Assembly: GCA_016839605.1 (NCBI GenBank)
Contig: JAEOTX010000172.1
Span: 1 to 13,966 of the forward strand
Source of the DNA: Candidatus Thorarchaeota archaeon
GTDB lineage: Archaea > Asgardarchaeota > Thorarchaeia > Thorarchaeales > Thorarchaeaceae
Direction of reading: 5' to 3'
Length of the DNA stretch: 13,966 nucleotides
The stretch's first letter is position 1, and each line of letters starts with the position of its first letter. Positions 1 through 13,419 of this stretch are shown here, piece by piece. The position numbers and the translations under genes are program-made. A model generated the notes under the pieces. It saw only the letters and a program-made list of their open reading frames with translations, was not told where the DNA came from and made no database searches.

Positions 1-3000
1 AGTACAACTAGTACAACCATTGCTCCAACCATAAAGTATAGTGTAGATGGTCCGCCAGATGGCGGAGGGGGTGGAGGTGTAGTTGGACCAGTTGTTGTTG
101 TGGTCGTCTCATTGCTTTGCAGGGACAGGAATGCACTCGAGTAGGAAACGAACACCGGATCAACGATGATGTCGTGTCCACCCCAGTACTCGTAGCCAGC
201 AGTCATGAAGAGCATGGAAGCCTGAACATTCCAGTTCGTGACACTTGTACCAGATTCTGACTCAAACATCACACTAAATGCACCTAATGGAGCAGTGGAT
301 GAACCTGAGCGGTGAATTGTTGAATAACCATCTCCACCCCAAAGGTATGGGAGATCACCCATAGACACATTGGCAAATGGGCTGTCCTCTGAGCCAAACC
401 GGTAGTAGTCAGCACCTTGGCTGTCCTGGTTCGTGTCAGTGACTGGTCGCTCACCAGCAGTATAGCGGGTTGCGGTGCCAGTTGCTAGAATTCCGAAGTA
501 GTTCACAGCTAAGCTGCGTCCCGCCAAGACACTGTTGCCGAACTCATGAAGTGTCCAGTCACCAATGACCTGATCGATCTTGAATGAGACAGCATGGTTC
601 CAAGTCTGTGGATCTTCTGGGTCGTACTCAACCATGTCAACACTGAATGTGACATCAAATGACATCTCATCAATTGTTGCTGGTGTGATCCAGTAGTCGA
701 AGTTGGTCCTATTGAGTCCAATAGCGCCATCATATGACTCTCTGAAGGCCCATGGGCCTCTTAGTGAGTCTGAGTGCTCAACTCGAATTGGATATATGGT
801 CACATCAACGTCATAGATGGAAACACCAAAGTCAACTACAGTATCAGCAGTGACTCTAATGTCTCCTGAGTCATCAATGGAACCAAATGGCCGCCTCAAC
901 TCAATGCTTCCAATGTCATCTATCAAGACGACATGTGTCACTTCATCCGTTGTCAGCTGTCCGTTCTCAAATGAGAAGTCGGGAGCTGCTGGAGTAGGAC
1001 CAAAACCATCGTTGAAGATGAGAAGTCCAGCATACTCAGCCTGGAAATGAGCTAGAGTTGCTTGGTTCTCAGCTATGGATACCCAGAAGTTCTGAGTTGT
1101 ACCCCATGCAAACCAAGTCGTCTTCCAATGGTTCTGTTCAAGCCCTGTTATTCCACTGAGGTCGATTGTCCGATTCACTGTCATCCATGCAGCGTAGATG
1201 TATCCGGGCTTGGCAACGTCATTACCCATGTCTGCCCAGACAGTGTCTTGGATATCAACCATTTCAGCGGCATCAACAGGTGTCCAGTCGTCAGCATGGT
1301 ACCAGTAGAAGGTTTCATTGGCCTCATACCAGAGGTTTAGCTGAACGACACCCATCCAGTTCTCTGACCAGAACTCGTCACCCATATCACCAGGTGTTGG
1401 ATCAAAGCCTACTCCTACCCACATACCATCAACGCTCCAATTGCCCCACTCTCTCCAATATCCAGTCCTCTTGACAAAATACTGGTCATCCGTTGTGTAG
1501 ACATTTCCATCAAGGTCGATGGCACCGTCCTCAGTGATGGTCCATTTCTCAGGTTTATAGACTGGAATGTCACCGAGTATCAAGTGACGTGGACTCCAGA
1601 AGACATCTGATGAGATGTCGACTTCATTGTAGGCATCTGTCCAAGCATCAACAAGGTTGTTGTATTGAGGTACAGTAAGAGCTGTTCCGTTCAACCACCA
1701 AGGATAGTTCCAGGTTGCATTTGCTGTATCCCAGATTCTGAGATTGTCAATCACACCGACTTTCACACGTGCACTGTCTATGATCATGTCAGGCGCATCC
1801 GCAGTGAAACCAAATTGAACCTTAAGCGTAGTTAGAGATTCCTCAATTTCAATTTCAAAATCACTAACAGCTATGTGATTGGCTGGGATTGGAACAGTCC
1901 ACAAGTGGACACCACCATGCTCAAACATGCTAACCCAGTATGTGGATGAAGTTGACGCAAGATCCGTCCTGAAGTCTAAGACCACACTGTGGATAATATC
2001 TACTCTCCAATAGTGAGTTTCATTACCATCCATTCCGGTTCCCATGACCTCAATCGTAAGCTCCGCTAACTCTCGGGTCAAGTTGTAGTCAGCCACAGGT
2101 TCACCCTGTTGAAAGATGAACGATCCATTGACTTCCTCCATAGGCGCATGCACAAGCATAGTGAGGTTCAAGTTATCATCCTGCTGTGCGATATCTGCGA
2201 TATGACCCAAGTCATCGAATACAAATGCCTCAATGAAGCCCTTCTGGAAAGCTAGTTTCATGGTCTGCTTGTGGCTGACATCTGGTCGCGCTGTGATTGG
2301 CCTGCCATGGATATCAAAGACCATTGAAAGACTGAGCTCTGGCTCAATAGTCCCTCCGTTGAAAAATCCTTCATCAAGGTCAACTAGGTCTGTGAAGTAT
2401 CCACTCCATTGAAGTCTGTGGCCGCCATCGTAGACACCCATGTAGGTTGAATTGGTCACGAAGTAGTCTGACATCCGAATTGTGGCATTCTCAATGCAAG
2501 TCAGCAATGGGAACCACAAGCCTATGCCTCCACCAAGATCCACCCAGGTCCAATTGACATCAAGATAGCCAGCAAGGGCGTAGATGTCTGTTGCATTGTG
2601 TTTCAGGAACATGAATGGATAGAGCTCCACCTCCTGTTCCTCCCAAGCAACATCTCTGTTGAAGAGAACACTGTCGCTGTCTTGAAGGCCCTCGGGGTAG
2701 GTCCAGTTGGCAGTAATCTTTAGGCTCTCATTGAATGTGAGCTGTGTGAAAGGAATAAAGACCTCTCCAAACTGTGCTGTCGACATCATCCTAATCGTGA
2801 ACGTGTCACCCACATCCACGAAGTGTGTGATGTCGCCCTGAGGATTGACAATGTCTGCATAGTAGTAGTCAGGAAGCTGGAAGTCTCTAGGATCTACAGC
2901 CATACCTAGACCAATTGGTGGCGTGATGAATCCACCGCCTTCTAGAGCGGAAATCCACGATGGCGAGGCAGGTCGATTCATAGTATCAACAGCCTGCATA

Positions 3001-3569
3001 CCAGTCCACATAATTGCTGGCACGATCATCAACTCATAGGTGATCGCAAAGACAACTCTATAGTAGTCTGCTTCTTCAGAGTATTCACAAGAGAGTGAAT
3101 CAAGCGTGATGAAGTTTGCAGCAACTGGTGTTTCTGCTACACCAACGTATCGGAAAGCCATGCTGTTCCATCTGTCAGAAGTCACGTTGTATTCCAGGCC
3201 GAAGTATGGGGCTCTAGGACCTTGCTTGACACCCCAGAACTGGATTGCCTCCAGTTCATTTCCTTCTCCTAGGAAGATTTTCGGGACAGTGATATTGATC
3301 AATAAATCAGTCCCAACATTAACAAGATAGCTATTATCGGCTATATGGGTGAGATTGCTGGCGTAGCCTACCCAGATTTTGGGTTGCGGACCAAAGATCC
3401 ACTCGGAGTGTTCGGCAGAGTTGTCAAATTGTCTAACATCATCTGCAACCTGCCATGCCACTCGAATAAACGGATCAGTAGGAGTCTGAGCAGCTACGAG
3501 GCCTGCTGTCGCAACAACACTCACCGCGAATACCGCGATTATAGCAACAGTCGAAATTTGCTTATTCAT
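1..3569 (-). CDS. Large secreted, C-terminally membrane-anchored cell-surface glycoprotein (type I topology); 3' end truncated by the window edge (>1189 aa)
   Basis: Hand translation from the ATG at 3569 stays open to base 1. It starts MNKQISTVAIIAVFAVSVVATAGLVAA|QTP (Sec-type signal peptide). The body is acidic and rich in Trp/Tyr/Thr with about 21 N-X-S/T sequons. It ends ...NETTTTTTGPTTPPPPPPSGGPSTLYFMVGAMVVLVV (linker plus the start of a TM helix). AGGTGA RBS lies 5 nt upstream. Absent from the ORF track because no stop codon is inside the window. Confidence 0.92.
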   Translation of the reverse strand, partial: MNKQISTVAIIAVFAVSVVATAGLVAAQTPTDPFIRVAWQVADDVRQFDNSAEHSEWIFGPQPKIWVGYASNLTHIADNSYLVNVGTDLLINITVPKIFLGEGNELEAIQFWGVKQGPRAPYFGLEYNVTSDRWNSMAFRYVGVAETPVAANFITLDSLSCEYSEEADYYRVVFAITYELMIVPAIMWTGMQAVDTMNRPASPSWISALEGGGFITPPIGLGMAVDPRDFQLPDYYYADIVNPQGDITHFVDVGDTFTIRMMSTAQFGEVFIPFTQLTFNESLKITANWTYPEGLQDSDSVLFNRDVAWEEQEVELYPFMFLKHNATDIYALAGYLDVNWTWVDLGGGIGLWFPLLTCIENATIRMSDYFVTNSTYMGVYDGGHRLQWSGYFTDLVDLDEGFFNGGTIEPELSLSMVFDIHGRPITARPDVSHKQTMKLAFQKGFIEAFVFDDLGHIADIAQQDDNLNLTMLVHAPMEEVNGSFIFQQGEPVADYNLTRELAELTIEVMGTGMDGNETHYWRVDIIHSVVLDFRTDLASTSSTYWVSMFEHGGVHLWTVPIPANHIAVSDFEIEIEESLTTLKVQFGFTADAPDMIIDSARVKVGVIDNLRIWDTANATWNYPWWLNGTALTVPQYNNLVDAWTDAYNEVDISSDVFWSPRHLILGDIPVYKPEKWTITEDGAIDLDGNVYTTDDQYFVKRTGYWREWGNWSVDGMWVGVGFDPTPGDMGDEFWSENWMGVVQLNLWYEANETFYWYHADDWTPVDAAEMVDIQDTVWADMGNDVAKPGYIYAAWMTVNRTIDLSGITGLEQNHWKTTWFAWGTTQNFWVSIAENQATLAHFQAEYAGLLIFNDGFGPTPAAPDFSFENGQLTTDEVTHVVLIDDIGSIELRRPFGSIDDSGDIRVTADTVVDFGVSIYDVDVTIYPIRVEHSDSLRGPWAFRESYDGAIGLNRTNFDYWITPATIDEMSFDVTFSVDMVEYDPEDPQTWNHAVSFKIDQVIGDWTLHEFGNSVLAGRSLAVNYFGILATGTATRYTAGERPVTDTNQDSQGADYYRFGSEDSPFANVSMGDLPYLWGGDGYSTIHRSGSSTAPLGAFSVMFESESGTSVTNWNVQASMLFMTAGYEYWGGHDIIVDPVFVSYSSAFLSLQSNETTTTTTGPTTPPPPPPSGGPSTLYFMVGAMVVLVV
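60..107 (-). repeat. Low-complexity coding tract: Thr6 (90-107) and Pro6 (60-77) juxtamembrane linker
   Basis: Codons ACG ACC ACA ACA ACA ACT ... CCT CCA CCC CCT CCG CCA. The mixed synonymous codons indicate a protein-level repeat. Confidence 0.85.
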
Positions 3570-3574
3570 ATTCT

Positions 3575-3580
3575 TCACCT
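3575..3580 (-). promoter_or_regulatory. Shine-Dalgarno site (AGGTGA) of the surface-protein gene
   Basis: Minus strand reads ggaaAGGTGAagaatATG. Confidence 0.75.
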
Positions 3581-3728
3581 TTCCAAGGTCCACCGATTCC
3601 ATCTCTCATGACAGGCGGGAAAATCTGATGGCCTGTCATCTCGTCTTGGAAAAGAGATTGTAGGTGGTTTTCTCGTATTTGGCGCATTCATAGAGGTACA
3701 ATCCTATTGTCCTCTGATGGAAAAAACC
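3575..3728 (-). promoter_or_regulatory. Structured 5' leader / candidate cis-regulatory RNA
   Basis: Perfect 9-bp inverted repeat ATGACAGGC (3608-3616)/GCCTGTCAT (3631-3639). Bulged hairpin AGAGG-T-ACAAT-CCT-ATTGT-CCTCT (3692-3715). 8-bp pair TTTCCAAG (3580-3587)/CTTGGAAA (3645-3652) abutting the RBS. Confidence 0.45.
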
Positions 3729-6972: not shown

Positions 6973-8247
6973 ATGCCAGATATTCCTAATGACTTATCGG
7001 CTGATGCCGAATCATTAGCAATCGAAGAAGAGAGCTACGGGTTTCTTGGTTTGAGTAGCAGTCTTTGGCGTCTTGCAATTGTGGTAGGTATTGCGCAGTT
7101 TACCATTAGTATTTGGAATTGGGAGTTCAGTATCTTTCTAGAGACCTTCCTTGAGCCTTGGCAAATGGGCTTGATATTTTCAACCAGTACGATCGCTAGT
7201 CTGTTGGGATATTTCCTCTCTGGCACAATTGCAGATCGTATAGGCCGCAAGAAGACAATGATGTTCGCATTCCTACCTACAGCATTAGGTCTCTTCTTTC
7301 TGGTCAATTATCCTATGTGGCCATTCATCCCTCTAGAGTATGCTTCCATCATGTTTGGATGGAGCTTCATATTGATAATGAGCAGAGCAATACCAGCAGA
7401 TGAGATTGAGAGTACCGGAGGCCATAATGCAGCACGACGATTTACAATGGTACTCTTGCCTGCCTTTATCGTAGATGGCATCAGTCCTGCAATCGGAGCT
7501 ACCTTGCTCAATGTAGGTTTCATCCCAAGAGACCTTCACACATTGGCAGGTATCGGGGCGATTATTGCATGCCTGGCTGCATTCCTCCTGATCCAGGAGT
7601 CTCTAGGTGGAGAAATCCTTGATAGAACAAAGAAAGGCCCACTCATTTCCTTCAGACGACTGGGGTCCAACTTCTGGAAACTATCGGTGGGAATGATTGC
7701 TTTCATATTCTTCTTCAACTCCGCTCTGGCTTACTATGGAAACATCATCGTGGGTGAATGGGGACTCGATGAAACAACTTTTGGATACGCATGGAGCGGT
7801 TTCTCTGTAGCCACTGTGCTATTGATGCATACAATAAGTGGCTATGTTGACAGGGGACTGAAGAAATCTCTATTCCTAGCAATTCTAGGAAATGGAATAA
7901 TCATTACAGTGTTTGCACTCGCAGGTGGTGCTTGGACACTCTTTCTCCTCAACTTCATCTGGGCAGTTCCCGTTGTCATGTGGATTGGTGCTGAGAGAAC
8001 ACTGGTTGTTCAAGATGTGGATGAGGAGAACAAGGGAAGGGCTCTTGGCACGTATCAGTTCATCTCAAGTTCAACGAATCTTGTTGCAGCACCCTTTGGT
8101 GCGTATATCTGGACGGTCTCTGGAAGTCTCAGGACATTGTGGACCATCTCAGGTATAGGAGGAATCATCTCTGCTCTGTTTCTGGGTGGTGCACTGAGAT
8201 CAATGTCAGAGAAGAAGAAAGCTGACAGAAATCTTGACTCGGAGTGA
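6973..8247 (+). CDS. MFS transporter (copy 1)
   Basis: 424 aa with about 12 hydrophobic segments. Motif A GTIADRIGRKK, second-half SGYVDRG, and the E.KGRALG motif. Confidence 0.93.
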   Translation: MPDIPNDLSADAESLAIEEESYGFLGLSSSLWRLAIVVGIAQFTISIWNWEFSIFLETFLEPWQMGLIFSTSTIASLLGYFLSGTIADRIGRKKTMMFAFLPTALGLFFLVNYPMWPFIPLEYASIMFGWSFILIMSRAIPADEIESTGGHNAARRFTMVLLPAFIVDGISPAIGATLLNVGFIPRDLHTLAGIGAIIACLAAFLLIQESLGGEILDRTKKGPLISFRRLGSNFWKLSVGMIAFIFFFNSALAYYGNIIVGEWGLDETTFGYAWSGFSVATVLLMHTISGYVDRGLKKSLFLAILGNGIIITVFALAGGAWTLFLLNFIWAVPVVMWIGAERTLVVQDVDEENKGRALGTYQFISSSTNLVAAPFGAYIWTVSGSLRTLWTISGIGGIISALFLGGALRSMSEKKKADRNLDSE

Positions 8248-8272
8248 CCGAGGAATCTTCTTATCTCGGTTA
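8245..8272. promoter_or_regulatory. Inverted repeat ACCGAG-N12-CTCGGT upstream of the NurA-like gene (operator or hairpin)
   Basis: ACCGAG 8247-8252 and CTCGGT 8265-8270, extendable with G-U pairs. It encloses TTCTTATC and is followed by the AT-rich TAATATAAT (8279-8287). Confidence 0.3.
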
Positions 8273-8312
8273 GTTCCGTAATATAATCATAAGCAGGTAG
8301 CGGGGAACAGGC

Positions 8313-10229
8313 TTGTCAGAAGAAGGCTCACGAATTACACGCAGGCTGAAGAAAACAGGTGAACTTCTTCTGGGTGGGGCCAAACAACAGGTCACAAGTT
8401 ATAGGAGTCGTTTTGATAGTCTCAGTGGAATCTATGATGAATTTCTGTCGGACTACATCAATCAATATCCTGATAGGAAGACGGATCCATCTTTCGTGGA
8501 TCGATTCTTTGGTAAGCGCGAACTGAAATTTGCGGGCATTGATGGCACAATATGCAAGTATGATGTGTTCGACCTTATCATCTTCTTTGCAGGAGCCTAT
8601 TCATCTCATGGAGTGGCTCGGATTAATGATAGCGGGACAATTGAACTTGAGTATGAAGAGCAATTCCTCGAGAGGGGTATTGGCCTATCTAGCGTACTCC
8701 CTATCTACATCAATGAGGTTCCACTTATAGATCAGACAATTCTTGCACGAGGCGAAGATGGAAGTGTGGATCATACTGTAGCACACTCTGACTCTTGGAT
8801 AATTGATAATTCTGCTTTCGCAGACTATATGATGACTCTTTCAGAGTTCTATCTGGCTTATCGCTTGGTCAGCGGGGAGGATCCTGTGGACATCTTGCTC
8901 CTGGACCGAGTCTGCTCTTCCGAAATCTCTTCATCCTATGCTGAAACATCTGATTTCAGAATTGATGTTGAGAAAGAGTGTGGACTTGTTGGTCAGGATG
9001 TAAATGGCAGACCCTTCACCGCTACAGAATGGGTTCATGCGAGAAGGCTCCTAGGCAACATGGAGCTTGGAACTCCGCCCGCACGAGGCGAATATTTGCT
9101 TCCACGACTCATAGCGGAACTGATTCGTGAGAGCTCAGGTTTGACAAGAGACGAGCTTGCCACGCGACTGGGTATTGACTCGGAACCTAGGCGTGAACGG
9201 CTCGATAAGGAACTGGAATCAGCAATTCGAGGCAAGGGAGTTTCCAAAGGCATATTTGTACGCAAAGGCAAGCACTTCAGCATAAAGCCTGAATATAGAG
9301 ACCTCAGGATAAGATTGGAGACCCTTGTAGAAGAAACCTGTGAACGACTCTTTTCGGAGGATTCTTCGATCACCTATGATGAGCGGTTTAAAGTAGGAAA
9401 GCGATGGTTGACAACTAATGACTTGTCATTCCTTGCCCTAGCTTCTTTGTATCTTACAATCGAGAAATGCTGGCAGAACAAGACGCTCCTAGTAGGGGTT
9501 GCCAAAGACACATCTGCGAGGGATTTGAAGAGGCAGGTAATTCCTGTCCTGAATCATCTCGATATATCTGACAAAGGATTCACTGGTGAACAGGGAGACA
9601 CACCTGACACAGACAGGATGATTCTACAGTGGGTATCTCTTCAAGAGCGAGATAGTCTGAAGATACCATGGGCCACTATTGAATACGATACAGCATTCAA
9701 GACAGTAGTGCCTCACTTCGAAAGAAAGCCTGGGCTTGTATCAGGAGCCAGGAGGAATCAAATCTCACTAGAGAAGACTTTCGTTAAGGCTTACTTCCAA
9801 CTCTGTGAAGCTAAGTCGGACCCACGATTAAGGAGTAATGTTCTGCTCTATGATAGACTTGTGTATCCCGAGTTCGATGACAATGATGCACATTTGCTAG
9901 TGCTCAATCATGACTACGAGAGCAGACCTGAATCCCCTGAACCTGTTGAAACTGTCTTCTACTTAGGTGTGGAGAATCCGATTCAGTCCTTCACCTTATC
10001 ACTATTCAAAGCCATGACCAGTGCGAGTATCCCCGAGCTTTTCGGTCATCTGAAGCCGCTATTTATTGCAGATAAGGTGGCAAAGTATAATTTCAGTCAT
10101 TTCAAGAACATGGTCGAGAGCGCAGGAAATTGGCTCATCAATCGGCCAGAGTTGCGTGAATTTCTATTCTATCTGAGCACATTTAGAGAAAGGAGATCTG
10201 ACGTTGAACAGTCACGAAGAGGCACCTAA
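8313..10229 (+). CDS. NurA-family (RNase H-like fold) nuclease, enlarged, with an internal winged-helix-like insertion
   Basis: NurA-type motifs in the expected order: FAGIDGT (D77), ILLLDR (D198), LVGVAKD (K398), FGHLKPLFIADKVAK (D587; cf. GYPxPLxxA[H/D]xxA). Directly overlaps a HerA-like gene. TTG start is uncertain. Confidence 0.82.
   Translation: MSEEGSRITRRLKKTGELLLGGAKQQVTSYRSRFDSLSGIYDEFLSDYINQYPDRKTDPSFVDRFFGKRELKFAGIDGTICKYDVFDLIIFFAGAYSSHGVARINDSGTIELEYEEQFLERGIGLSSVLPIYINEVPLIDQTILARGEDGSVDHTVAHSDSWIIDNSAFADYMMTLSEFYLAYRLVSGEDPVDILLLDRVCSSEISSSYAETSDFRIDVEKECGLVGQDVNGRPFTATEWVHARRLLGNMELGTPPARGEYLLPRLIAELIRESSGLTRDELATRLGIDSEPRRERLDKELESAIRGKGVSKGIFVRKGKHFSIKPEYRDLRIRLETLVEETCERLFSEDSSITYDERFKVGKRWLTTNDLSFLALASLYLTIEKCWQNKTLLVGVAKDTSARDLKRQVIPVLNHLDISDKGFTGEQGDTPDTDRMILQWVSLQERDSLKIPWATIEYDTAFKTVVPHFERKPGLVSGARRNQISLEKTFVKAYFQLCEAKSDPRLRSNVLLYDRLVYPEFDDNDAHLLVLNHDYESRPESPEPVETVFYLGVENPIQSFTLSLFKAMTSASIPELFGHLKPLFIADKVAKYNFSHFKNMVESAGNWLINRPELREFLFYLSTFRERRSDVEQSRRGT
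10191..10195 (+). promoter_or_regulatory. Shine-Dalgarno site (AGGAG) for the HerA-like gene, embedded in the nuclease CDS
   Basis: AGGAG lies 8 nt upstream of the TTG at 10204. Confidence 0.6.
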
Positions 10230-12075
10230 TCACTTATTCACAGACTTCGAAGGAACATTTGATGGCAGGCTTGCAAGAGTAATTCCTGTAGCTGCAAACT
10301 ACACTTCAGAGTGGGCAGGTTCAGCAGCAAGGTACGATTGCAGAATCAAAATCAGATACAATAAGGAGTTAATGGCGCAGCTTGAAGAAGGCATGATGAT
10401 AGCTGTCCGCAACTTCAAGGGCCAGTCCAAGATTGCCAAGAAGAAAGGGGTTCAGCGCTATACTGTGATGGTAATTAGCAAAGTGTGGCCTCTGCATTAT
10501 GGATTGGGCGGCATAAGCGACAGTCACTATTATCCGATGCAAATGGAGATGATAGAACAAGCGGTTCCAGACTGGGACACTGATGACCAGGCAACCATGA
10601 TGGTTCATCTTACTGCAATTCCAATAAACTATGACCTCATTGTACCAGAGAAAGGAGAGATAGAATTCAGAAAGGGTTTCTCGTATCCTCTCATTGGAGA
10701 TAGAGTGCATGTCATCAACCTAGAAACAGTTGACCTCATCTATAATGGTAGAGTCAGAGAGGCACTTGGGCTGAAGAGAAAGGCCACATCTTCTGATCCG
10801 AAGAAAGACCCGCGGGTTGGTGTTCTCAGGATGTTCATGGACTCTGACAAAGAAGTTCCGGTACTCGTGGACCTCTATAAATTGCTTAGGTACCACTTTG
10901 GAGTGTTTTCCTTCACAGGAGGCGGGAAGAGCAATTTGCTCTCAAATCTTTTCAGGAGAATCCTATATCACACGAAGGATACGAAAATTGTCATCTTTGA
11001 TGTCAGCTGTGAGTATCCATTTCTCATGTCTGATGTGTTCTCCGATCCCAAGATCCATGCTAAGGTGATTGTGGAGGAAGAGCCAAGAAAGGCAGAGGAT
11101 TTCGCTAGGTCTATTGTAAAGCCTCGCGATTTTGAGGATGATCCCCGAGCAAATACTGCTCTCAAATCACTATATGACCTTGGCATGGTTACATTCTATA
11201 ATCTTCCTCAATCCCGGATGCCAACATATAGGTCTGTGCTCGATGACATCAACGACCTTCAAAACGATAATGCCTCTAAGCCGACCTATGTCCAAGCACT
11301 TGAACAAATTAAGGCGGCTGTGGCAGGCTGGATGGACTCTTGGGACAAGTCAGATGGTGATGCACTTGATAACAAGTTTGTTGACATGCTGCATAAGGAA
11401 GCTGTGACAGCAGTGGAAGATTTCTCTGTGTATCCGAAGTCAGGTGTGGCTGCGTGGGCTACAACCAGAGCAAAGCTCAAAGATGCCATTGCCAGAACGA
11501 GGAGTTCCAAGAAAAAGGGTGTGACAGTTAAAGACATGGTCAAAATGATGAGTGGTCCTGAACGTGTCATATGCATATCAATAGCAGATCCAGACATTCT
11601 CAGAGACATCGTAATTCGGATGACCGCTTCTGCTCTCAAATATCGGAAGAGAAGCTTTGAGATAAAGCCGCAAATACTGTTTGTCTTCGATGAGGCTCAG
11701 GAGTTTATACCATCAGGCGCTACCGGACAGGTTGCCAGGTGTAGTAGTGCGATTGAGAGATTGCTACGTCAGGGGAGAAAGTATGGACTTGGAGGGGTAA
11801 TCGCAACTCAGAGAATTGCGTATCTGAACACAAACATTATGCAACAGCTGCACACTTTCTTCGTTGGTACACTTCCTAGACCTTACGATAGAACAGTTGT
11901 TAGTAGTTCATTTCAGATTGATCTAAGTATTCTAGACAAGACGCTAGAGTTTCCCCCCGGGGCATGGCTTTTGTCAAGCTATATTGCAATGGGAATTGAT
12001 AACGTACCAGTGTTTGTTAAGGCTGACAACTCTGAAGATGCTCTGCAAGATCATATTGCCGCCATGGCGGAATGA
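10204..12075 (+). CDS. HerA/FtsK-superfamily ATPase (HerA/DUF87-like DNA translocase) with a probable N-terminal HAS barrel
   Basis: Walker A HFGVFSFTGGGKS (K242), IVIFD, Walker B FVFDEAQEF (D496/E497), arginine-finger LRQGRKYGLG (R525), sensor ATQR. Beta-rich N-terminal domain (EEGMMIAVRNF). Confidence 0.92.
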   Translation: MNSHEEAPNHLFTDFEGTFDGRLARVIPVAANYTSEWAGSAARYDCRIKIRYNKELMAQLEEGMMIAVRNFKGQSKIAKKKGVQRYTVMVISKVWPLHYGLGGISDSHYYPMQMEMIEQAVPDWDTDDQATMMVHLTAIPINYDLIVPEKGEIEFRKGFSYPLIGDRVHVINLETVDLIYNGRVREALGLKRKATSSDPKKDPRVGVLRMFMDSDKEVPVLVDLYKLLRYHFGVFSFTGGGKSNLLSNLFRRILYHTKDTKIVIFDVSCEYPFLMSDVFSDPKIHAKVIVEEEPRKAEDFARSIVKPRDFEDDPRANTALKSLYDLGMVTFYNLPQSRMPTYRSVLDDINDLQNDNASKPTYVQALEQIKAAVAGWMDSWDKSDGDALDNKFVDMLHKEAVTAVEDFSVYPKSGVAAWATTRAKLKDAIARTRSSKKKGVTVKDMVKMMSGPERVICISIADPDILRDIVIRMTASALKYRKRSFEIKPQILFVFDEAQEFIPSGATGQVARCSSAIERLLRQGRKYGLGGVIATQRIAYLNTNIMQQLHTFFVGTLPRPYDRTVVSSSFQIDLSILDKTLEFPPGAWLLSSYIAMGIDNVPVFVKADNSEDALQDHIAAMAE

Positions 12076-12153
12076 ATGCCAGCTTATGAAGGGCCGTCAT
12101 CGACACTAACTTAAGCGCGAGTCTTCAGCCAAATTCTGCAAGAGGACCGTACC

Positions 12154-13419
12154 ATGGCTGAAGGGCTTGAACATGTTGGAGAAGATGACACTACTCCAGC
12201 TAAGAGCCCTACACGCGAGATTCTTGGGCTTAGACCAGAGCTTTGGAGAGTTGCAGTCTTACTTGGTTTAGCTCAGTTTTCGGTTGGTCTTTGGAATTGG
12301 CAATTCAGTGTCCATCTAGACACATTTCTCGAACCATGGCAAATAGGCTTGACATATTCTGCTAGACCTGTGGCAATGCTCTTGGGAGGTTACCTTTCCG
12401 GGATGATGTCAGATTTCTTTGGTAGAAGGAAGACAATGGCTTTCAGTCTTGTACCAATCTCTTTTGGGCTTCTCACTCTTTCTTTCTATCCTATTTGGCC
12501 AACTATTCCCATTCAGTTCGGTCTTGTGATGTTTGGCATAAGTTCCGTCCGATTAATACAGAGAGCAATCCCTGCTGACGTTATCGAAGCAGAGCGGATT
12601 CAAGATCCTGCACGCAAGTTCATGATGATTATGGTGCCTCTTTGGTTAATGGACGGAATCAGTCCTTTAATGGGTACAATCTTGCTCAGCATTGGACTAC
12701 TCCCACAGCACCTCTACTTGATAGCAGCAATTGGAGGAGGATTTGCTTGCATAGCAGTCATTCTCGGAATCAAGGAGTCTCTTGCGAAGGAGATAATTGA
12801 GAAGGCCAAACAAGGGCCTAGAATACCAATACGAAGTCTTGGCCGGAATTTCTGGATGTTTTCAGGTGCATTGGTTTGTTACTTCTTTTTCTACAGCTCG
12901 GCAATCTCATACTTAGGAGTCCTCTGTGTAGATGAGTGGATGGTGGACATCACAACCTACGGACTATCATGGAGTCTGTTTTCATTTACAGGTGCAGTGA
13001 TCATGTATTCTGTGAGTGGTCTTGCTGACAAGAATGTAAAAGCAGCCCTCGTCGTCGCTATTCTTGGCAACGGATTATCATTCATAGGCTTTGGCCTCGG
13101 TTCTGGTGCGATCTGGCTTTATGTGATTAACATAATCTGGGCATTCCCGTTCATGCTATGGTTGGGGTCAGTACGGACTATCATAGCCTACAGTGTTCCA
13201 GAGGATCTCAAGGGGAGAGCATTCGGAACTTATGACATGCTAGCTGGTCTTACGGCTATGTTTGCGGCTTCATTTGGAGCACTTCTATGGCAAATGACCG
13301 GGAGCCTTAGATTTGTATGGGTTCTCGCTGGTAGCGGAATGATTCTTGTCACTTTCATAATCGCATTCGTGCTACGTAAAATTGAGATCAAACAGAATCA
13401 GATAGTTGTGCAACAGTAG
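12154..13419 (+). CDS. MFS transporter (copy 2, paralog of 6973-8247)
   Basis: 421 aa with about 12 hydrophobic segments. Motif A GMMSDFFGRRK, SGLADK, EDLKGRAFG. Colinear with copy 1. GAGGA RBS-like site and a CTTAAG TATA-like element (12110-12115) upstream. Confidence 0.93.
   Translation: MAEGLEHVGEDDTTPAKSPTREILGLRPELWRVAVLLGLAQFSVGLWNWQFSVHLDTFLEPWQIGLTYSARPVAMLLGGYLSGMMSDFFGRRKTMAFSLVPISFGLLTLSFYPIWPTIPIQFGLVMFGISSVRLIQRAIPADVIEAERIQDPARKFMMIMVPLWLMDGISPLMGTILLSIGLLPQHLYLIAAIGGGFACIAVILGIKESLAKEIIEKAKQGPRIPIRSLGRNFWMFSGALVCYFFFYSSAISYLGVLCVDEWMVDITTYGLSWSLFSFTGAVIMYSVSGLADKNVKAALVVAILGNGLSFIGFGLGSGAIWLYVINIIWAFPFMLWLGSVRTIIAYSVPEDLKGRAFGTYDMLAGLTAMFAASFGALLWQMTGSLRFVWVLAGSGMILVTFIIAFVLRKIEIKQNQIVVQQ

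Follow-up and report, generated by a model that had tools for sequence, protein, structure and literature searches.

A long NurA-like nuclease and its HerA partner in a Thorarchaeota genome, with a candidate promoter that may link the pair to DNA repair

The window considered here is the entire 13,966-bp contig C108 of a metagenome-assembled genome of a Candidatus Thorarchaeota archaeon (80% complete, 259 contigs), and it carries two overlapping genes for a long NurA-like nuclease and a HerA-like translocase ATPase, which are flanked on both sides by genes for major-facilitator superfamily (MFS) transporters. The core machine of archaeal end resection consists of HerA and NurA. In Asgard archaea, HerA-NurA is uncharacterised and is of interest for the origin of eukaryotic repair (PMC13748450). 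All the results presented below are computational and come from comparisons of DNA, genes and protein models alone. In the list of open reading frames (ORFs), the four genes are co-oriented and spaced by 65 bp, a 26-bp overlap and 78 bp, which matches exactly the coordinates, the shared orientation and the gaps given by an earlier, sequence-only reading of this DNA, in which they were taken as a four-gene cassette built around a non-canonical NurA-HerA module. As that reading had also noticed, Mre11 and Rad50 are missing from the window, Pfam scans of its ORFs having returned no match to either family.

From the gene layout, the functional unit appears to be a two-gene operon, long nurA followed by herA, the two genes being predicted to be translationally coupled (Table 1). 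In six relatives retrieved by exact protein look-up, NurA and HerA are always adjacent, with an overlap of 26-29 nt. The product of the second of the four genes, the long NurA, has no above-threshold family match in Pfam, NCBIfam or PADLOC, its score against the Pfam NurA family (PF09376) being 12.9 bits for a cut-off of 21 (E 0.077), and annotation pipelines label this long, winged-helix NurA only as hypothetical. Its AlphaFold model (pLDDT 79, pTM 0.81) matches the NurA of S. solfataricus (2ygk_B) with a Z score of 19.1 and an rmsd of 3.5 over 278 aligned residues, covering residues 9-579 of the model, and it matches T. kodakarensis NurA (9x1l_G) with Z 11.1 and TdpB (8wet_G) with Z 10.5. 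In the same line, the ten best Foldseek matches in the PDB are all NurA (E 4e-8 to 5e-6). An insert within this fold, at residues 244-332, is matched by many winged-helix domains, with Z scores of 8-9 and an rmsd of 1.3-3.3 over 56-72 residues in VIA-align. The residues D77 (in the motif GIDGT), E178, D198, K398, D399, D434 and D459 are invariant in 36 long-NurA members, down to 21% identity, and the GVAKD motif aligns with the GVVKD of canonical NurA; the usual C-terminal histidine of NurA is seemingly replaced, A586-D587 being nearly invariant. Searches by sequence were negative or weak: a profile of 32 members found no NurA in the PDB, and in an hhalign comparison with the canonical NurA of the genome the GVxKD motif alone was aligned (probability 40%). 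The NurA assignment therefore rests on the fold comparison, and the model indicates a NurA (RNase H-like) fold with a winged-helix insert, in agreement with the NurA-like label proposed earlier. The winged helix might bring the nuclease to certain structures or marks in DNA, or might itself bind the operator described below.

The HerA-like label of the third gene was likewise confirmed. The protein matches the DUF87/HerA family (PF01935) with 51.8 bits for a cut-off of 23.2 (E 1.5e-13), and its alignment-based model (pLDDT 87.7) superposes on S. solfataricus HerA (4d2i_B) with Z 28.3 over 360 residues, within a model range of 14-615 that includes the N-terminal barrel; the Pfam HAS-barrel model gave no match in this protein. 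Further fold matches are 8wiv (Z 27.6), the HerA of HerA-DUF (9c1m, Z 26.1) and TdpA (8wet, Z 26.0), the Z scores of repair and defence HerAs being tied within about 2. Within the HerA family, G239, G241, K242 and S243 of Walker A, D496 and E497 of Walker B, and R522, R525 and K526 are invariant, and R522 and R525 agree with an arginine finger. K242 and the D77 of the nuclease, which had both been named beforehand as targets for mutant controls, are invariant in the family alignments. Orthology with the repair enzymes was not supported, the NCBIfam repair equivalogs NF040819 and NF040937 giving 47.8 and 39.5 bits for cut-offs of 970 and 800, and the antiphage HerA equivalogs of NCBIfam gave 48-52 bits for cut-offs of 800-850. 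In PADLOC, which gives no cut-off for it, the top model is PDLC01055, a type III CRISPR 'coevolved' model, with 152 bits.

Compared with the archaeal end-resection complex (S. solfataricus 2YGK/4D2I; T. kodakarensis 9X1L, PMC12977600), both folds are alike, the T. kodakarensis HerA being matched with Z 22.5, the genes are adjacent and overlapping, and the Walker motifs are conserved, the invariant acidic residues D77, E178 and D198 being candidates for the catalytic ones. The window NurA differs from the NurA of resection complexes (about 320-450 aa) by its length, by its winged-helix insert and by its position under the Pfam cut-off, and the window HerA differs from repair HerAs by the equivalog scores given above. 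By analogy with the solved complexes, HerA and the long NurA would form the usual hexamer-dimer machine.

Besides this pair, the genome contains two other NurA/HerA sets. Contig C205 carries a Pfam-typical NurA of 385 aa overlapping a 509-aa HerA with a HAS-barrel, and contig C22 carries, as consecutive genes, a 435-aa NurA-like protein, a 586-aa HerA, an Mre11-type metallophosphatase (Metallophos) and a 693-aa frame whose Rad50 zinc-hook match, at 23 bits, falls just under the cut-off of 24.3. The first C22 gene (C22:20674-21981; L150:675-1982) has no Pfam match and shows weak NurA-like LLLDG and AVSK motifs, so that it probably encodes an unrecognised divergent NurA. This gene is present in 84 of 86 family genomes and in all 23 high-quality ones, whereas the long NurA was found in 52 of 85, being absent from most of the genus g9 (91-95% complete), from the single g4 genome and from others. 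Since the C205 and C22 sets exist and the distribution of the long NurA is patchy, the window pair is a third, dispensable NurA/HerA set, with the reservation that the C22 NurA and Rad50 are identified from weak matches. The earlier view of a non-canonical module is upheld by these data: a separate nurA-like/herA/mre11/rad50-like operon does exist on C22, the window pair, which has no adjacent mre11 or rad50, is additional to it and to the C205 set, and its HerA scores far below the cut-offs of the repair equivalogs.

The pair appears to have its own promoter, made of a palindrome and a TATA-like box. When the upstream regions of long-NurA genes are aligned, CTCGG-N5-CCGAG is conserved and is followed by (T/C)TCTTAT(C/T) across genera. 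The copy of the window is its sole match with at most one mismatch, and an exact copy occurs at the same place upstream of long NurA in 16 fetched loci besides that of the window, some of which share a genome; where a locus has an exact copy, it is the only one there and always lies at this place. Palindrome and TATA-like box are also kept upstream of nurA at L013, where the preceding gene is not an MFS gene. An A/T-rich stretch at 8280-8287 was considered as the TATA box and was rejected for its lack of conservation in relatives. The idea that the palindrome acts as an RNA hairpin or terminator was rejected as well: the arms are invariant and show no covariation, and variants break pairing without compensation, making a protein-binding site more likely than an RNA structure.

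Further copies of the palindrome point to a link with repair genes. The genome has seven exact palindromes for about two expected. One of them lies 187 nt upstream of uvrB, itself followed by a 962-aa ORF that is a putative uvrA by its size and position. Of the 30 uvrB loci of the family, 22 have an exact palindrome about 200 nt before the gene and four more a one-mismatch variant; the two arms do not change between these sites, in contrast to the spacers, and the palindrome is separated by 7-8 nt from a downstream TATA box (GATATATC or ATTAATAG), a spacing similar to that of the pair. A relaxed scan of the genome, which accepted palindromes with at most one mismatch accompanied by an A/T-rich box and counted an ORF start when located 20-260 nt downstream, returned 16 sites, nine of them with such a start. 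Repair genes or operons follow at five of the nine: the window pair, uvrB, ogt (O6-methylguanine methyltransferase), the C22 nurA-like/herA/mre11 operon and a gene for a 1638-aa UvrA-like protein. At the remaining four, what follows is DUF3795-DUF763, a gene for a nitroreductase, one for a luciferase-like monooxygenase, or an ORF of 90 aa (C218:15420-15692) at an S8 subtilase site. With permuted arms, the same scan yielded 0-1 exact sites versus four for the real motif.

Conservation of the uvrB, ogt and C22 sites was followed in relatives (loci L075-L104 and L155-L215). At ogt, one genome from a different genus has an exact site; within the family, 13 of 29 loci retain it in place with at most one mismatch, and six more with two. 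At the C22 operon, 18 of 30 loci retain the site, the right arm being invariant and a TTTTTAT box conserved, so that the promoter element of the window pair also stands before the herA-mre11 operon of the same genome. The palindrome-plus-TATA layout before the 1638-aa UvrA-like gene is an observation on this genome alone. The palindrome is predicted to be the site of a transcription factor, and its sharing with uvrB, ogt and the C22 operon suggests a genotoxic-stress regulon and thereby a repair role for the pair. No published description of a CTCGG-N5-CCGAG operator, or of a DNA-damage regulation motif for Asgard archaea, was found in the literature.

Table 1. Features of the NurA/HerA locus (positions in the window) and palindromes elsewhere in the genome (contig:position)
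Feature	Position	Strand	Remarks
MFS-A	6973..8247	+	424-aa major-facilitator transporter; MFS_1 E 3.6e-15; syntenic neighbour, appears to lie outside the module
Palindrome CTCGG-AGTGA-CCGAG	8238..8252	+	candidate operator; spans the MFS-A stop codon (8245-8247)
TATA-like box TTCTTATCT	8258..8266	+	5 nt past the palindrome; putative nurA-herA promoter
Long NurA-like nuclease	8313..10229	+	638 aa, TTG start; fold match
Winged-helix domain inside the NurA fold	9042..9308	+	residues ~244-332; VIA-align matches
HerA-like hexameric translocase ATPase	10204..12075	+	623 aa, TTG start; 26-nt overlap with nurA
MFS-B	12154..13419	+	421 aa; diverged MFS-A paralog, this genus only; appears to lie outside the module
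Own-genome palindromes	C172:7794, C116:277, C98:23067, C22:20593		precede uvrB, ogt, the uvrA-like gene and the C22 operon (listed jointly)

Some observations made at these sites deserve mention in their own right. Several uvrB genes that look otherwise intact, with up to 95% identity to the uvrB of this genome, contain one or two in-frame TAG codons (G377, G375, G372, G347, G352, G326, G328 and others), which could reflect stop-codon recoding (e.g. pyrrolysine), assembly error or pseudogenes. At C124:706, an exact palindrome with a TATA box (GATATAAG) lies 37 nt before DUF3795-DUF763, directly after a DNA-alkylation-repair gene; DUF3795/DUF763 is a weak candidate for regulon membership, its palindrome being kept only in a few same-genus genomes. 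One and the same exact palindrome is present in three genomes, at C218:15546 and at positions 1501-1515 of both L113 (G368) and L105 (G313), where it has an S8 subtilase gene on one side and, on the other, a divergent small ORF and then a gene for a coiled-coil protein.

The long NurA belongs to a wider family. A profile of 32 Thorarchaeota sequences matched 395 representative clusters, mostly of about 600 aa, 255 of them at E <1e-10. The contexts of distant members are defence-like: one lies with a dndB/DpdB-like gene and a dndBCDE/A cluster, another with SIR2-ORC/Cdc6, a CARF protein, a DpdA/DpdC-like fusion and a D12 methylase, and a third with a DpdA-like protein, DUF6884 and ParE/RelB toxin-antitoxin genes. 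In two other Asgard genomes, one pair is followed by a Dcm methylase, and the other has DUF6884 (PADLOC PDC-M57A) and a full-length DpdA (E 2.5e-70) at its flanks. The relatives of DUF6884 include YaaA/DUF328, which is the DpdC family (PMC11701544; PMC12839542). A FastTree phylogeny unites the Thorarchaeota sequences with support 1.0 inside an Asgard 'solo' clade (support 0.87) and places the modification-linked members in two separate clades. Within the solo clade, the neighbours include a divergent DNA ligase, a Holliday-junction-resolvase-like nuclease, YdjM/HhH proteins, an FrhB-like protein, a glycogen debranching enzyme (GDE) and ribA (GTP cyclohydrolase II), and no modification, CRISPR-cas or defence-island neighbour was detected at about 35 loci by tblastn synteny and by Pfam on selected neighbours. 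According to the synteny table, the pair occupies the same chromosomal site across genera, which, together with the support of the Thorarchaeota clade within the solo clade, argues for vertical inheritance. As a separate observation, a module recurs at L061 (7353-12729; Asgard family f22), L031 (6985-12954) and L033 (8001-13051), composed of a long NurA, a HerA, a DpdA-like transglycosylase and DUF6884 (DpdC-like, PADLOC PDC-M57A), once with a CARF protein. It looks like a 7-deazaguanine-type modification-restriction system with a NurA-HerA effector, and no description of such a NurA-HerA-DpdA-DUF6884 module was found in the papers searched.

Three explanations have to be weighed for the pair, the one closest to the sequence-only reading being that the four genes form one cassette, in which DNA degradation by NurA-HerA would be coupled to MFS transport of nucleosides or nucleotides, or in which a Ced-like HerA would import DNA together with membrane proteins. 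Co-orientation and short gaps in this genus speak for it, and so does the presence of MFS-A upstream of the pair in most Thorarchaeaceae genera. The comparative data nonetheless make it very improbable and designate the two MFS genes as bystanders, neighbours of the pair by ancestry. Both belong to MFS_1 (E 1.4e-16 for MFS-B) and are 43% identical over 406 residues, and in the MFS tree MFS-B is a long branch nested within the Thorarchaeaceae MFS-A clade, as expected for a genus-specific diverged duplicate of MFS-A. In a synteny table built by tblastn over 35 loci, with the MFS proteins of the window as queries and a reach of about 6-8 kb around the pair, the order MFS-A/NurA/HerA/MFS-B is confined to the same-genus loci L035, L036 and L038; in other Thorarchaeaceae genera, MFS-A/NurA/HerA is followed by ribA or another gene, the MFS gene is inverted and two genes distant in L011 and L045, no MFS gene abuts the pair in L013 and L049, and in five other Asgard families the pair is present with no MFS homologue within that reach. 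The downstream MFS gene was also absent in all six relatives of the exact protein look-up. Moreover, four genomes that are 91-95% complete and lack any long-NurA match keep the arrangement 1200-aa protein, metallo-beta-lactamase (MBL), GDE, MFS, ribA, with the MFS gene directly abutting ribA. As MFS-A stays against ribA in these pair-less genomes, it is independent of the pair and appears to be part of an older syntenic block, between the MFS and ribA genes of which the pair would sit in most genera. The remaining genes of the window, for the 1200-aa protein and, according to Pfam, MBL, GDE and ribA, correspond to that block. The first of them (window 3-3602, - strand), whose product is at least 1200 aa long and has no match in Pfam, NCBIfam or PADLOC, lies in conserved synteny beside the MBL and GDE genes in the Thorarchaeaceae, with 41-87% identity. 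The conserved promoter between MFS-A and nurA further argues against a single cassette, and the Ced form is contradicted by a CedD model score of 30.6 bits for a cut-off of 600, by HerA and NurA models devoid of membrane segments, and by membrane neighbours that are ordinary MFS_1 proteins with no conserved linkage. The neighbourhood survey proposed at the outset contradicts the cassette, homologous pairs showing no MFS linkage beyond local synteny, and does not support the transport of DNA breakdown products by the MFS proteins.

The second explanation sees in the pair a restriction module against viruses or plasmids, derived as a solo form from the modification-linked long-NurA/HerA systems, that would capture and degrade foreign DNA, the winged helix sensing a DNA mark or structure and self-protection being provided by an unlinked methylase or by none; the third, which is preferred here, is an auxiliary DNA-damage-processing machine. 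Several points favour defence and weigh, by the same token, against a repair role. The distant family members adjoin the modification and defence genes listed above, the best PADLOC model of HerA is a type III CRISPR one, the pair is dispensable, being missing from entire genera of near-complete genomes, two of which have intact flanks, and in one other Asgard family it comes after an Mrr-like restriction nuclease gene; two Dcm-type methylases, unlinked to the pair, are also encoded in this genome. TdpAB of the TdpABC phosphorothioate (PT) defence system (8WET) and the DndFGH/HerA 'capture' systems (PMC12839542) likewise combine a HerA-like hexamer with a NurA-like nuclease, the C-terminal domain of DndH being matched with Z 23.3 and a distant long-NurA member lying beside a dnd cluster. 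As for the HerA/NurA proteins associated with type III CRISPR (clusters 57/58 of Shah et al. 2018, PMC6546367), PDLC01055 fits a distant family member over its full length with 261 bits, and that member adjoins a CARF protein. Besides, the case for a repair regulon has its own weaknesses: the promoter, the regulon and its induction by damage are predictions from sequence, the relaxed-motif total of 16 only modestly exceeds that of the permuted-arm controls (1-14), about half of the relaxed sites may be chance occurrences, five Thorarchaeota relatives show no genome-wide enrichment of the exact palindrome over a reversed-pattern control, and some sites precede non-repair genes (Pirin, the nitroreductase, the luciferase-like monooxygenase and the S8 subtilase region), so that the regulon may answer stress more broadly. 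The regulon argument draws on the identity of the downstream genes and on positional conservation among kin, whose genomes are not independent. Against defence, in turn, stand the roughly 35 solo-clade loci free of modification, CRISPR-cas or defence-island neighbours, the vertical inheritance at one chromosomal site over many genera, the separate clades of the modification-linked members, the long NurA matching no PADLOC model, and the promoter element common to uvrB, ogt and the herA-mre11 operon. Unlike TdpAB and Dnd, the window clade has no linked PT, Dpd or methylase gene and forms a separate, vertically inherited branch, and unlike the type III CRISPR-linked pairs, the examined Asgard-clade loci have no cas or CARF gene nearby, although the genome itself was not searched for CRISPR-cas or Cas10. 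DUF6884 was not found in this genome, which is 80% complete, and a DndE search gave no match there, as in the control genomes. The earlier suggestion of defence or foreign-DNA degradation agrees with the defence-like contexts of the distant relatives, and fits poorly with the solo, vertically inherited clade to which the window pair belongs and with its shared operator; for this pair, we consider it rather unlikely.

Taken together, these data lead us to regard the pair, with moderate confidence, as a dispensable auxiliary DNA-damage-processing machine within a Thorarchaeaceae genotoxic-stress regulon, serving repair and not defence, because its promoter layout is shared with uvrB(A), ogt and the herA-mre11 operon. 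If it works like the solved HerA-NurA complexes, DNA would be passed by a HerA hexamer into a NurA dimer, which in this case bears two extra winged-helix domains, and would be unwound and degraded starting at ends or nicks. The operon would be driven by its own promoter, in which CTCGG-N5-CCGAG lies just upstream of the TATA-like box, the same layout being predicted before uvrB(A), ogt and the nurA-like/herA/mre11/rad50-like operon in relatives, and before the uvrA-like gene in this genome. The pair probably shares its ancestry with the restriction-type NurA-HerA modules that are coupled to DNA modification in other prokaryotes. More tentatively, and with a little less than an even chance in our estimation, the regulon marked by CTCGG-N5-CCGAG just before the TATA box would unite uvrBA, ogt and herA-mre11-rad50 with a domesticated, restriction-derived long-NurA/HerA, to which the built-in winged helix would give a new specificity for substrate or target.

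The empty-site evidence, the promoter of the pair and the link to a repair regulon are new here. The locus also gives a caution, namely that tight co-orientation with transporters can be mere synteny. Thorarchaeota would keep three NurA/HerA-type sets, one of them long and with a winged helix, and the locus offers a natural comparison between repair-type and restriction-type uses of one nuclease-motor design. The shared operator gives a concrete starting point for experiments on how Asgard archaea regulate their response to DNA damage and, if the proposal is true, this would be the first DNA-damage regulon proposed for these organisms and a case of a defence-type nuclease-motor recruited into repair.

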